Source: Escherichia coli
GTDB taxonomy: Bacteria; Pseudomonadota; Gammaproteobacteria; Enterobacterales; Enterobacteriaceae
DNA: 64,000 nt
Assembly (NCBI RefSeq): GCF_003334785.1
Contig: NZ_QOWV01000015.1
Strand: one strand, 5' to 3'
The notes beneath the pieces were generated by a model, which had not been told where the DNA came from, made no database searches, and was given only the letters and a program-made list of their open reading frames with translations. Shown here piece by piece: positions 38,437-45,263 of the stretch (the first letter of the stretch is position 1; every line of letters begins with the position of its first letter). The position numbers were made by a program, and so were the translations under genes.

Positions 38437-39876
38437 TCAGGCGTTACCGGTAAAAAGTTTCCCATCGCGCACCAGTTCACGCGGATAGCTGTTTTTCAAT
38501 CGCGAACCAATCCGTTTGGCTAAACCAATCGGTTGATGCTGGAAAGTAACCAATACATCATCCGCCACTGGCGCGGCTTGCGGGTAAACATCGCGCCCGC
38601 GATACCACTCCTCCGCTTCCTGCGGTGTCAGCTCGAATGCATTCATATTATCGGGTGAGGCAAGAGCAATAACCGCTTCATGCTGCCAGCGATAACCTTT
38701 GTTGTGCGTCTCGGCAAGTTTAATCCCCAACCGAGAAAATCGGACTTTACCGATCAGGGCTTCAATGCCCACCGGGAACAACCACAGTTCTTTGTCACGC
38801 TGCCAGAGGCGCAGGTTTTCATCCCAGTTTAAGCCAACACCTGCAGCCGCCTGCCGAATTTGTCCAGCTTCGCGATCTTTCACCGGGCTGAACGGAAAAT
38901 TGCCCACTTTGTATGTTGGGGTGGGTAAGGCGGGAATGGCCTGAGTTTTACGCAGACGAGCAACGAAGAAGCCTTCGCAGTCGTAAATTTGTGGGAAAAC
39001 ATGCAAAAAGCCTTCTTCGGTCAGCGCTTTGTTTGCAGCAGGGAAGAGCTCGCCAAGTGGTAAAAACTCTACTGCGTCAGGGTAAGTCTCTTTCAGCCAC
39101 ATGCAAACGGCTTCGTTTTCTTCCCTGTTTAAGGTACAGGTCGAGTAAACCAGCGTACCACCAGGACGTAATGCATGAAAGGCGCTGTCGATAAGCTCCC
39201 GTTGTGTAGCTGCGATTTCCTGATTGCTTTCTGGTGACCAGTTTTTTAGCGCATCGGGATCTTTACGCACCACGCCTTCGCCAGAGCAGGGAGCGTCCAG
39301 CAAAATGGCATCGAACATTTCTGGCACTGCCACACCAAACACGCGGCCATCAAAATGTGTGAGCGCAACATTACTGATGCCACAGCGGCTGATATTGGCA
39401 TGTAACACTTTTACCCGACTGGCGGAAAACTCATTGGCAAGGATTGCCCCTTCGTTATTCATCCGTGCGGCAATTTGCGTCGTTTTGGAGCCTGGCGCAG
39501 CAGCGACATCCATCACCCGCTGTGGTGCATTACCGTCAGCAAACAAGGCGGCGACGGGCAACATTGAACTGGCTTCCTGAATATAAAACAGGCCGCTTAA
39601 ATGCTCGGCGGTACTACCCAATGGCAATGCATCTTCATTGTCGCGTTCAATCCAGAAACCTTCTTCACACCACGGAATTGGCGTAAGCGTCCAGCCATAA
39701 GGAGCGGTTAATTGCAGGAAATCAGCAACGGAGATTTTCAGCGTATTAACGCGAATGCTGCGGCGCAACGGGCGCTGACAGGCGGCAAGAAAATCATCAA
39801 AAGAGAGCGTCGAAGGCATCGCTTCGCGCATTTGCGTCAGAAAGGCGTCCGGGAAATAAACGGTGTGTTGGGCCAC
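38437..39876 (-). CDS. rsmF: 16S rRNA m5C1407 methyltransferase
   Basis: SAM-dependent RsmB/F family ORF; GTG start for 479 aa. Confidence 0.9.
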
Positions 39877-39955
39877 GAGCATATACCACTGGCAAAAAAA
39901 CAGGCGCGCAGTTTAGCATAAACGCTCCGGCGCAGGCACGCCGGAGCAGTGGGCA

Positions 39956-42589
39956 TTATTTGGGAAGCGCAGTACCCCATTCACGCCACTCTTTCGGTTC
40001 ACTTTCCTGCAACAGGAAGTGCTTGCCTTCCTGGGCTTTCGGTGCCAGTGGCGTCCCCGGAGGCGTGGCGAAGGCGATGCCGCCACGGATAAACTGGTTA
40101 AAGGTGCCGGTTTTCACTACGCCGCCCGTCAGACCAAAGTCCAGACTGTAACCCGATGCCAACCAGAAGACGGAATTGTTACGCACCAGGTGTTGATAGC
40201 GTTTACTGATGCGCATCGCAATCATCACGCGATCTGACAATGTCCCCAGCGTCATTCCTGTAACCGTACCGACTTCCAGACCACGGAACAGCACAGGCGT
40301 ACCGATGCCTAACGAACCGGCTTCCGGCGCTTCAACAATAATGCTTAAGCCATCCAGGTAACGCGAATCAGTAATGGTGGCCTCTTGTAATTCAAAGTCG
40401 CGGCGAGGATTGCCCCGGCCTGGTTCGACGTTGATATACGGCTGGAGGATAGTATCAAGATGCTCAACGCCAGCTGCCGAAATTTGCGGTGTGACCAGTG
40501 AGAAGCGCGTACCACCGCGAGCAAAGGTCTGGACATATTCCGGATAGAGCACCGCCTTTGCCTGTACTTCATTGCGCGCGGTAATCAGATCCAGCGTCTG
40601 GATTTGCCCGATATCAATACCGAGATAGCGAATTGGCATCCCGACCGCCAGTTTTCCGGCATCGAAAGCGTGAAGCGTAATCTGCCCGCCAACCGCACGG
40701 GCCGCTGTTTCGGAAGCATACAGAATTCGTTTGTCGCCTTTACGCTGACTGGCGCTGGCACCGCTGAGGTTATCGAAGCTAATGGCTCCCTTTAATGCTC
40801 TGGAGAGCGGGGATGCCTGTACGGTCAGGCCACTACCATTCAGCTGAACTTTCGCCCCGCCTTCTGCCCAGAACACGCTATTGCTGGTCAGAAGGTTGCG
40901 ATACTCCGGCTTAATATGCAGATCGATATCAAACGCGTTAGCTCGCGGACGGACGGTAATAACTTCACCAACTTCAAATTTACGGTAGAGCACTACCGAT
41001 CCTGCCTGCACATCCGGCAGCGTCTCTGCACTCAAACTCACGGTTGTGGTGGGTAAATCGCTAAGGCTGTTCTCCAGCGCTTTTTCCAGATTGGCATACA
41101 GTGGATAGCTGGCTTTCATCTCGCCTTTATCGCCCGGCAGAATACGTATCCCGCCGTTAATCCATTCTGAGGCGCTGGCACCGAGAAACTCAACGCCATC
41201 CAGCCCCACCTTCACGTCGACACGGCTGTTGACGACAAATTTGCTATCGCCTTTTACCAGTTCTCGATGCTGAGGCTCGATGGCGACGGTAAAGGTGACG
41301 CCTTTGCTGGTGAGTTTACGATCGATAACCAGGCCTACCTGCACGCCGTGAAGAATGAGCGGCTGACCCGCATCAATACCGTAACTTTCCGGTGCGGTCA
41401 GGGTCAGCGTCAGAACATCAGGTTCATGCAGCAGTGCTTTTTCGCCTGGCACAACAACGAACTCTTTGCGTGGCTCGCCATCGCCGGGTACCAACTCGAA
41501 GGTTTTGCCAGTCAGCAGGGCGCTGAGATTGGCATCGCTAAGGGATAATTTCGGGTTGCGTAATTCGATGCGGGTATTTTCCCGTAACAGCGTAACGACG
41601 CTGGGATCAACGGTCATTTCTCCGGTGACTTTACCACCAGGATTTAAATCCAGTTTAGTCAGCTGTCCGACTTCCAGCCCCTGATACATTAACGGCGTCG
41701 AGTCGGCGGTTAATCCTGCCCCACTCGGCAGTTCCAGTTTTATTATTACGCCACGCTGGCTGTGGGCCAGATCTTCATACAGACCAAAGGTATCTTCCGC
41801 CTCGGCAGGTTTCGACTCTTCTGGTGAATCGAAGGCAATCGCACCGTTAACCAGTGCCGCCAGACTTTCCAGTTTCACCTTCGCGCCACTGATACTGACG
41901 TTGGCATCAACGCCGGAAACGTTCCAGAAACGGCTACCTTTTTTCACCAGGTCGGTAAAACGCCGCTCGATCAGGACATCAATCACCACGCCTTGCTTGT
42001 TGGGATTGATGGCATAGTCGTAGACTTTTCCCACCGGGATCTTGCGGAAATAGACCAATGAACCGCTGTTCAGCGAACCGAGATCGGGGGCTTGCAGGTG
42101 GATCATCAGATCGCCATTGTCCAGCCGATATTTCGGTTGGGTATCGAGTGCGACAAAGTGATCCTGCTCTTTACCTTTACCCGGCATCATGCCGATATAG
42201 TTACCACCGACGAGGGCGTCCAGCCCGGAGACACCTGCCAACGATGCTTTTGGCGTCACCAGCCAGAACTGAGTCTCTTCGCGCAGCGCATCTTTCATAT
42301 CGGACTTGATGCTGACCTTGACTTCAATCTTACGAAGATCGTCGCTGAGGCTGATATCCTGCACTGTTCCGACTTCAACGCCCTGATAACGAACAGGCGT
42401 ACGGCCCGGAACAATACCATCCGCCGACATAAAGTCGATGGTGACGGTATTACCCCGGTCCTGATAACTGTCCCAAATCAGCCAACCGGCAATCATTAGC
42501 GCGATGAAAGGCAGCAGCCAGAAAGGTGAGATACGGCGTTTATTTTTAATCTGCGCTTCAGTCGTCGAAGCGGGCGTTTCCTGACTCAT
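39956..42589 (-). CDS. letB: LetB (YebT), multi-MCE-domain lipophilic envelope-spanning tunnel protein
   Basis: Trimmed to [31 protein letters not shown]... (877 aa); N-terminal TM then repeated MCE domains. Confidence 0.9.
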
Positions 42590-43841
42590 GTGCATCCCAA
42601 AGTAAGCGGCTGTCCAGCCATTCCACAGCAAGAATAGTCAAAATTACCGCTGCGCCGAAATAAAACGCAGCCGGTCCCATAGTAAAAGCGAGGATCTGAT
42701 CGCGATTAATCAGCGACATGGTTAAAGATATGACAAACAGGTCGAGCATCGACCAGCGACCAATCCAGGTCACCATCCGCAGTAACAGAATGCGTGTGCG
42801 TAAACCTTGCTGGCATTTAAAATGAATGCTCAACAGTAAAGTGAACATGACGATCACTTTAGTAAACGGTACCAGAATACTGGCGATAAACACGATTCCC
42901 GCAACCGCAATGTTGCTACTTGCCAGCGACATAATTCCGGAAAGAATTGTATCTTCCTGCCGTCCTCCGTTCAGATAAATGATAGAAATAGGCAACAGGT
43001 TGGCAGGTAACAACAAAACGATTGACGCTAACAGCGCCGCCCAGCATTTTTGCAAACTATGACGGCGACGCACGCGTAGCGGGATATGGCAACGCGGGCA
43101 GCGACCACGCTGATCAGGATAGCCGGTAAAATGGCACCCAAGACAGACACGGAGTTTCTCGTCCCTACGCGTAGCGGGGCGCTGCGGATAAAATCGCTCC
43201 CACAGCTCCTCGACATTAAGATGTGACAACGTCACCGTCGTTAAAATCACCAACGCCACAAAAGAGAACAAGCCCACACCCGCCTGGATATGGGCATAAT
43301 CCTGTACCTTTATAGAAGCAACGCCAATGCCGACCAGGTAGATATCCAGCATTACCCACTCTTTAAGTCGCTCAAGCATCAGCAGTACCGGGCGTAGATT
43401 CATTCCCAGTCGGTTACCAAACCATAAATAAACTATGGAGGTCACCAGAATGAGGGGGGCACCGATAACGCAGAAAAAGACCATCGACCCCGTTATCGCA
43501 TCGCCCTGTTTGGTCATTTGCCAGATGCCTTGCATAACGTTGGCGTCAATACGAATGCCTAACAGCCAGATATGCAACAGCGGTTCGCCCCAGGCAAACG
43601 GCATCAGCAACAGCATGGTGAAAGCCATTGCCGCCAGGCGCGTTAGCGACCAGTCGCGCCCGTCGCGAATTTTTGCCTGACAGCGCGGACAATAGGCACT
43701 CTGATGAGAATTTATCTCGGGCAGGCTAAACAGCATGTCACATTGCGGGCAACGTTGGTAATCACCACGCGGCAGTTCCTCGCCGATTGACCTCACTGTT
43801 ATCTTTTTTGTCGGCGTAATTTGTGGTGTGTTAAGAGCCAT
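42558..43841 (-). CDS. letA: LetA (YebS), PqiA-family inner membrane protein
   Basis: 427-aa polytopic ORF with Cys-rich zinc-ribbon-like motifs (CPQC...CPRC, CLGC...CPRC); 32-bp overlap with letB start. Confidence 0.9.
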
Positions 43842-43970
43842 GACGTGCCAAATGTAATAAGAATTAACATTAATATTAACCCATGATTGGAATGATCTTG
43901 AGCATTAACGCATTTAATGCTTATTTTAATAGGCTGGCAGTTCCAGGTAAGACAACCAAGTGATTATATA

Positions 43971-44468
43971 ATGAACAAAACAGAATTTTACGCGGATTTA
44001 AATCGCGACTTTAACGCGCTGATGGCGGGAGAAACCAGTTTTCTGGCAACGCTTGCGAACACCAGTGCGTTGTTATACGAGCGTCTCACTGACGTAAACT
44101 GGGCAGGTTTTTATTTGCTTGAGGACGATACACTGGTACTCGGACCATTTCAGGGCAAAATTGCCTGTGTCCGGATACCCGTCGGGCGCGGGGTGTGCGG
44201 CACTGCGGTTGCCCGCAATCAAGTGCAGCGTATCGAGGATGTTCACGCGTTTGACGGGCATATTGCCTGTGATGCGGCGAGTAATTCTGAAATTGTTCTG
44301 CCGCTGGTGGTGAAAAATCAGATTATTGGTGTTCTTGACATCGATAGTACCGTCTTCGGTCGCTTTACAGACGAGGACGAGCAAGGCTTACGTCAGCTTG
44401 TGGCACAGCTTGAAAAAGTGCTTGCAACGACGGATTACAAAAAATTCTTTGCGAGCGTCGCAGGATAA
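43971..44468 (+). CDS. msrC: free methionine-(R)-sulfoxide reductase (GAF domain)
   Basis: Trimmed to MNKTEFYADLNRDFNALMAGE..., 165 aa. Confidence 0.85.
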   Translation: MNKTEFYADLNRDFNALMAGETSFLATLANTSALLYERLTDVNWAGFYLLEDDTLVLGPFQGKIACVRIPVGRGVCGTAVARNQVQRIEDVHAFDGHIACDAASNSEIVLPLVVKNQIIGVLDIDSTVFGRFTDEDEQGLRQLVAQLEKVLATTDYKKFFASVAG

Positions 44469-44564
44469 TCAACGGATAACGTAGCATTTACTGGTAGCGT
44501 CATTATAATGACGCCTGTTCATGCCTGCGCTTGTTGGCTACGTCCGTTGTAATCAGGAAATTTC

Positions 44565-45263
44565 ATGGAAAATCAACCTAAGTTGAATAGCAGTAAAGAA
44601 GTAATCGCGTTTCTGGCCGAACGTTTTCCCCACTGTTTCAGTGCGGAAGGTGAAGCGCGTCCGCTGAAAATCGGTATTTTTCAGGATTTGGTCGATCGTG
44701 TTGCTGGGGAAATGAACCTGAGCAAAACGCAATTGCGATCCGCTTTACGTCTCTACACTTCGAGCTGGCGTTATCTTTACGGTGTTAAACCCGGCGCAAC
44801 GCGTGTCGATCTTGACGGCAACCCATGCGGTGAGCTGGACGAGCAACATGTAGAGCATGCTCGCAAGCAGCTTGAAGAAGCGAAAGCGCGTGTTCAGGCA
44901 CAGCGTGCTGAACAGCAAGCGAAAAAACGCGAAGCTGCCGCAACTGCTGGTGAGAAAGAAGACGCACCGCGCCGCGAACGCAAGCCACGTCCGACTACGC
45001 CACGCCGCAAAGAAGGCGCTGAACGTAAACCTCGTGCGCAAAAGCCGGTAGAGAAAGCGCCAAAAACAGTAAAAGCACCTCGCGAAGAACAGCACACCCC
45101 GGTTTCTGACATTTCAGCTCTGACTGTCGGACAAGCCCTGAAGGTGAAAGCGGGTCAAAACGCGATGGATGCCACCGTATTAGAAATCACCAAAGACGGC
45201 GTCCGCGTCCAGCTGAATTCGGGTATGTCTTTGATTGTGCGCGCAGAACACCTGGTGTTCTGA
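44565..45263 (+). CDS. proQ: RNA chaperone ProQ
   Basis: 232-aa [28 protein letters not shown]... with basic linker and C-terminal Tudor-like region. Confidence 0.9.

Follow-up and report, generated by a model that had tools for sequence, protein, structure and literature searches.

The letB start codon lies at a conserved position inside the 3' end of letA in the letAB (yebST) operon of Escherichia coli

The DNA examined here is a 64,000-nt window of an Escherichia coli contig, to which all coordinates refer, and two adjoining genes on its minus strand are the letAB (yebST) operon, in which letB very probably begins at the ATG at 42589 inside the 3' end of letA and would be initiated there mainly de novo. 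A sequence-only reading had proposed a letA of 427 aa with CxxC pairs and a letB of 877 aa with tandem MCE domains; the open reading frames (ORFs), the RefSeq annotation and the motif positions all agree with this proposal. Several complete E. coli genomes match a 4.2-kb stretch of the locus at 100% identity, and this stretch occurs in 5425 of the 5426 complete E. coli genomes. The RefSeq/PGAP annotation of a 100%-identical genome places yebS and yebT at exactly the boundaries found here, the 32-bp overlap included, and so does the annotation of K-12 MG1655 (letA, 1916258..1917541; letB, 1917510..1920143). Compared with LetAB (YebS/YebT) of E. coli K-12, indeed, the locus, the junction, the overlap and the neighbours are the same and only strain-level polymorphisms differ: DNA identity is 98.4% over letA and letB, and each protein has three residue differences (A18S, A137V and L257V in LetA; S35G, Q420L and V698L in LetB). 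The neighbouring genes rsmF, msrC, proQ and prc as well as the junction sequence are identical to those in K-12.

LetA is a polytopic inner-membrane protein with two LetA/PqiA modules and a zinc ribbon before each. The search for PqiA and MCE domains that the sequence-only reading had suggested as a check indeed finds two PF04403 (PqiA) modules in LetA (Pfam; residues 66-217 and 263-418, E 1.4e-38 and 8.4e-43, respectively) and seven PF02470 (MlaD/MCE) matches in LetB (residues 45-808). Four CxxC motifs in LetA, at residues 31, 51, 233 and 248, make two tetracysteine signatures (Table 1), the zinc ribbon being defined as CXXC-Xn-CXXC with n = 11-18 before each transmembrane module (PMC13017536). 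LetA furthermore matches 9n8w_A in the PDB (E 4.9e-290) and TIGR00155 (PqiA/YebS; 705 bits against a cut-off of 260) but does not reach the PqiA equivalog NF011683 (215 bits versus 562). What distinguishes LetA from PqiA is a partner of the LetB type, with 6-8 MCE domains, immediately downstream instead of the 3-MCE PqiB (PMC13017536). The gene examined here shows all the features of the LetA family: namely, tandem PqiA modules, a tetracysteine motif before each of them, and an adjoining downstream gene with seven MCE domains.

In LetB, the MCE domains are preceded by an N-terminal membrane anchor, a hydrophobic stretch at residues 23-39. Residues 1-877 align over their full length with 9n8w_B and correspond to residues 15-891 of the long ORF, and the score of LetB against the PqiB equivalog NF008070 (470 bits) is below the 525 bits required. 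Structures have been solved for LetAB (PDB 9N8W/9N8X) and LetB (6V0C), the K-12 genes being b1833/b1834, and the LetAB complex contains one LetA for each LetB hexamer, that is, 1 LetA to 6 LetB (PMC13017536). By analogy with these structures, which are of a protein different at three residues, the LetB hexamer is considered to be a phospholipid-transporting tunnel across the periplasm. The sequence-only reading had regarded letAB as an already described tunnel system, and this is borne out by PDB 9N8W and PMC13017536. The system, its structure and the 32-bp overlap are all already known; since the RefSeq boundaries, PDB 9N8W and PMC13017536 agree, the observation is correct and already published, and in this sense ordinary.

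The 32-bp overlap, with the letB start at 42589 inside the letA end at 42558, had been pointed out in the sequence-only reading and can be read directly from the sequence, from RefSeq and from K-12; it is also stated in the Methods of the Nature paper on LetAB (PMC13017536). In the letB frame the junction reads TTG CTG TGG AAT GGC TGG ACA GCC GCT TAC TTT GGG ATG CAC ATG AGT CAG, and the end of letA reads GAT GCA CAT GAG TCA GGA AAC GCC CGC TTC GAC GAC TGA in its own frame. The letB ATG is thus made from the LetA codons H418 and E419 (cAT Gag), and it opens the 877-aa protein MSQETPAS.... In the cryo-electron microscopy of LetAB, LetA 419-427 and LetB 1-13 were not resolved (PMC13017536), so that the overlap encodes only disordered tails of both proteins, where it costs least to have two frames overlap. 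A plasmid refactored so that the two ORFs no longer overlap has served, furthermore, as the wild-type backbone for a functional mutational selection on LetA (PMC13017536), and the overlap is therefore not needed for function on a plasmid.

For comparison we used 80 Enterobacteriaceae loci with 76-97% LetA identity, all from one LetA scan of species-representative genomes; counts of 81 are these 80 loci plus the window, and the locus of Kluyvera ascorbata (L060) was read by eye, its letB frameshift lying further downstream. The overlap is kept in all 80 loci; it is 32 nt long in 76 of them, and in the other four, in which the letA TGA has become GGA, it measures 44 nt. All 81 sequences carry the ATG at 42589. 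We also placed four LetA homologues of lower identity on contigs: the two at 50% and 44% identity overlap their letB by 56 and 38 nt, respectively, the difference being due to the length of the LetA tail, and of the two at 39% LetA identity, one overlaps its letB by 8 nt and the other is separated from it by a short gap. At 44-50% identity, the letB ATG still falls in the same LetA column, within W-x-x-[H/Y]-[E/D] encoded with xAT GAx, and a GG(G)A is supplied there by TGG GAx or TGG AAA. Because the overlap varies (32, 38, 44 and 56 nt) with the ATG fixed, the conserved feature is the position of the start and not the distance between stop and start.

Some members of the comparison set deserve a remark of their own. 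The draft genome of Kluyvera ascorbata ATCC 33433 has letB frameshifted at a C-run (L060:4928-4945), and Citrobacter koseri NCTC10786 (L017) has a premature stop at letB codon 539; each is either an assembly error or a pseudogene. The locus registered as "Chryseobacterium sp. 18061" (L064, CACSKA010000003.1) is a typical Enterobacteriaceae letAB with 79% LetA identity, which suggests a contaminated or mislabelled assembly.

Around the letB start there is also a zone in which synonymous variation is suppressed (Table 1). Synonymous codon diversity was calculated in 10-codon windows over 77 loci for letA and 68 loci for letB. The operon mean is ~0.48, and the windows in the zone have values of 0.04-0.17, the sole ones below 0.2 in the 3.9-kb operon. 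The constraint reaches ~54 nt upstream and ~50 nt downstream of the letB ATG, or ~3x the overlap length. Dual coding was tried as the cause of the upstream part of this zone and was excluded by the two-frame classification of variants described below. In its simplest reading, we infer, the zone would be an extended translation-initiation region for letB.

Table 1. Coordinates of the features of the letAB locus within the window
Feature	Position	Strand	Description
letA (yebS) coding sequence	42558..43841	-	427 aa + TGA stop (42560-42558), ATG start; from the ORF list, RefSeq agrees
letB (yebT) coding sequence	39956..42589	-	877 aa + TAA stop, ATG 42589-42587; same start in RefSeq and K-12
Zone of low synonymous variation	42539..42644	-	letA codons 400-427 and letB codons 1-17, ~100 nt
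Dual-coding overlap	42558..42589	-	32 nt; LetA residues 418-427 + stop, LetB residues 1-11
Weak Shine-Dalgarno-like GGGA	42595..42598	-	5 nt upstream of the letB ATG; letA codons W415 + D416
Alternative in-frame ATG	42593..42595	-	two codons (6 nt) upstream, MHMSQ..., 879 aa; probably not the start
TTG opening the longest ORF	42629..42631	-	891 aa, 14 codons longer; not the real start
LetA N-terminal zinc-ribbon motif	43680..43751	-	CPQC-x16-CPRC, residues 31-54 (C31/C34...C51/C54, n=16)
LetA second zinc-ribbon motif	43089..43145	-	CLGC-x11-CPRC, residues 233-251 (C233/C236...C248/C251, n=11)
GC-rich stem-loop	39923..39948	-	11 bp, starts 8 nt after the letB stop, before rsmF; terminator scan

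Two other codons in the same frame could in principle open letB, and both had to be weighed against the ATG at 42589. The sequence-only reading had taken the 891-aa ORF for an upstream extension of letB, and start conservation together with the two-frame substitution pattern leads to the same view; its first codon at 42631, which had been called an ATG, nonetheless reads TTG, and the in-frame ATG at 42595 had been overlooked. This TTG is the first possible start after an in-frame stop and is kept in 77 of the 80 species, but its retention is explained by its position inside the conserved letA codons L404 and A405, and it has become TTT in three Citrobacter-like genomes (L014, L029 and L032). 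When variants in the segment from -42 to -1 are classified in both frames, 11 are synonymous and 6 non-synonymous for letA, versus 3 and 14 for letB, and the 14 extra codons accept radical changes (L>Q, W>L/S, T>I and M>T are the common ones in the letB frame), all silent in letA. Within the overlap (0 to +31), the counts are 2 synonymous and 13 non-synonymous in the letA frame and 8 and 7 in the letB frame, so amino-acid changes there fall on LetA. Because this pattern reverses at 42589, it is at that very position that letB takes over from letA as the frame under coding constraint. The 877-aa form is, furthermore, the one used in PDB 9N8W and in the refactored plasmid of the functional mutational scan of LetA, and a start at TTG 42631 is exceedingly improbable. 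A start at ATG 42595, alone or together with 42589 where both codons exist, would require a shift of only 6 nt in the same frame, and this codon is found in 61 of the 81 sequences, including the window and K-12; it is lost (ACG or ATA), however, in the remaining 20, through substitutions that leave LetA unchanged or alter it conservatively, and the losers include another lineage of E. coli itself (the GTDB representative, L002), Salmonella enterica subsp. arizonae, Enterobacter cloacae and Kluyvera. Neither codon has a correctly spaced Shine-Dalgarno sequence in our scan for duplexes with the anti-Shine-Dalgarno, the GGG directly adjoining ATG 42595. The duplex of the GGGA with the 3' end of 16S rRNA (-4.0 kcal/mol) has a spacing of 4-5 nt that is correct for 42589, and bases -9 to -6 of this start are invariant across the 80 species. 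We thus regard initiation at 42595 as very improbable; the comparison of sequences supports 42589 as the letB start, the 891-aa ORF being no more than an extended version. The TRAINSPOTTER N-terminomics supplements have no entry for yebT, letB or P76272. A mini-ORF in the third frame (ATG at -32, with its TGA overlapping the letB ATG as ATGA) was also considered and rejected, as CAG at -23 is changed to TAG in 21 loci; it too fails to account for the upstream part of the constrained zone.

As to how ribosomes reach this start, the translational coupling proposed in the sequence-only reading is the weak part of that proposal and is probably over-simple. In its classical form, ribosomes ending at the letA stop (42560-42558) would slide back over 32 nt to start again at the ATG of letB, and the overlap of two genes on the same strand, the weakness of the Shine-Dalgarno-like site of letB and the arrangement in 80 of 80 species are all in its favour. 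Termination-reinitiation nevertheless takes an upstream stop within a few nucleotides of the downstream start, and the intergenic distance between letA and letB, as defined in PMC4538824, is d = -32. The bicistronic reporters of that study show a linear loss of reinitiation once d passes -10, with zero reached by extrapolation near d = -28, and its authors advise overlaps of >=25 nt where reinitiation is to be prevented (PMC4538824). Reinitiation would also yield at most one LetB per LetA, and the complex requires six; the distance between stop and start is not conserved, given overlaps of 32, 38, 44 and 56 nt with a fixed ATG; and the paralogous pqiA-pqiB pair has no overlap but a 4-nt gap. 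Because d = -32 is beyond the measurable range and LetA and LetB assemble 1:6, classical reinitiation is unlikely. We infer instead that 30S subunits would initiate letB de novo at a site internal to letA, assisted by the weak GGGA, and that letB would mainly not be translated by ribosomes coming directly from termination at the letA stop; coupling, if any, would then be indirect, with ribosomes translating letA keeping the letB site unfolded. Several points weigh against this proposal of de novo initiation. The reinitiation data come from synthetic reporters measured at d = -25 to +25 only, so that d = -32 is an extrapolation, and the argument from the 1:6 stoichiometry assumes proportional synthesis. 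The Shine-Dalgarno score of letB is equalled by 28% of background windows in the duplex scan. The RNA structure on which coupling by unfolding would depend is not significant at the junction (z = -0.45), RNAalifold showing only small hairpins, and the predicted accessibility of the letB site depends on the context that is folded. The zone of suppressed synonymous variation might, alternatively, control the LetB:LetA ratio as a dedicated regulatory element, for example as a site where a small RNA (sRNA) or an RNA chaperone binds or an RNase acts, or as an internal promoter for letB-only transcripts. Synonymous constraint over ~54 nt upstream of the ATG exceeds the typical 30S footprint; a TTGACT hexamer lies at -52 to -47 in the invariant part; and genomic SELEX (systematic evolution of ligands by exponential enrichment) has reported a peak of the sigma-28 holoenzyme inside yebS, at K-12 map position 1914836 (PMC5493296). 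No usable -10 box, however, follows the TTGACT, a sigma-70 scan found no promoter-like site in the zone, no sigma-28 consensus is present on the coding strand of letA, Rfam gave no match at E <= 1 within 39500-44600, and the fold, as mentioned above, is not significant; the zone varies too little for a covariation test. Such a dedicated element is hence decidedly unlikely. It is likewise quite improbable that the zone, in which the nucleotides are conserved almost without exception, is a cis-regulatory RNA element, more than an ordinary ribosome-binding site, which sets 6:1 LetB:LetA from one mRNA; such an element could take the form of a standby or entry site with RNA structure, or be targeted by an sRNA or by ProQ, whose gene is two genes away.

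Among known systems, PqiABC of E. coli, a paraquat-inducible MCE system, is similar in that a two-module membrane protein of the PqiA family is encoded directly upstream of a multi-MCE protein, with TIGR00155 common to LetA. PqiB has, nonetheless, three MCE domains versus seven in LetB, the third gene of pqiABC encodes the lipoprotein PqiC whereas letB is followed by rsmF, and both LetA and LetB score below the cut-offs of the PqiA and PqiB equivalogs and thus fall outside PqiAB(C). In K-12 pqiABC (1012001-1015459), the gap between pqiA and pqiB is followed by a 4-nt overlap between pqiB and pqiC; because these junctions are short, the long overlap is specific to letAB and not a requirement of the family. 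MlaFEDB shares the MCE (MlaD, PF02470) fold, the hexameric rings and the role in phospholipid trafficking (PMC5561183), but in Mla, which is powered by an ATP-binding cassette (ABC) transporter (MlaFE), there is a single MCE domain, whereas LetAB is without an ABC ATPase or permease and uses LetA (PMC13017536). The coupled junctions of the ATGA/TAATG type are also similar, as genes of one operon on the same strand have the downstream start inside the upstream gene; such overlaps are, however, typically 1 or 4 nt, as opposed to the 32 nt of letAB, at which reinitiation is, by extrapolation, about zero (PMC4538824).

At the other end of letB, the GC-rich stem-loop in Table 1 is conserved among 46 sequences from Enterobacteriaceae, 4 of its 11 pairs showing compensatory changes, and the T-run after it is weak. 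The letAB transcript probably ends here, or read-through into rsmF is attenuated, the structure being either terminator-like or a 3'-end stabiliser. In the 129-bp divergent intergenic region between letA and msrC, the promoter scan found no sigma-70 consensus promoter, and at the letA start (43841, minus strand) Shine-Dalgarno complementarity is practically absent (-1.5 kcal/mol). The longest ORFs of the neighbours, like that of letB, overshoot the annotated starts: rsmF (minus strand) has its longest-ORF ATG at 39882 (481 aa) versus the RefSeq GTG at 39876 (479 aa), and msrC (plus strand) begins at 43917 (183 aa) versus 43971 in RefSeq (165 aa).

For annotation, the 877-aa start is right and the 891-aa product is an artefact of choosing the longest ORF. 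A long overlap of this kind is, furthermore, not evidence for coupling of the reinitiation type, especially where the subunits assemble 1:6. Two aspects are modestly new: namely, the letB start is fixed in the W-x-x-[H/Y]-[E/D] motif of LetA in homologues down to ~44% identity, and it sits in the single strongly constrained zone (~100 nt) of the operon. That the C-terminal tail of LetA is so extremely conserved in Enterobacteriaceae is best attributed to the letB start which it hosts and not to LetA function, a caveat which bears both on how conservation in LetA is read and on the design of letA mutations at the native locus.

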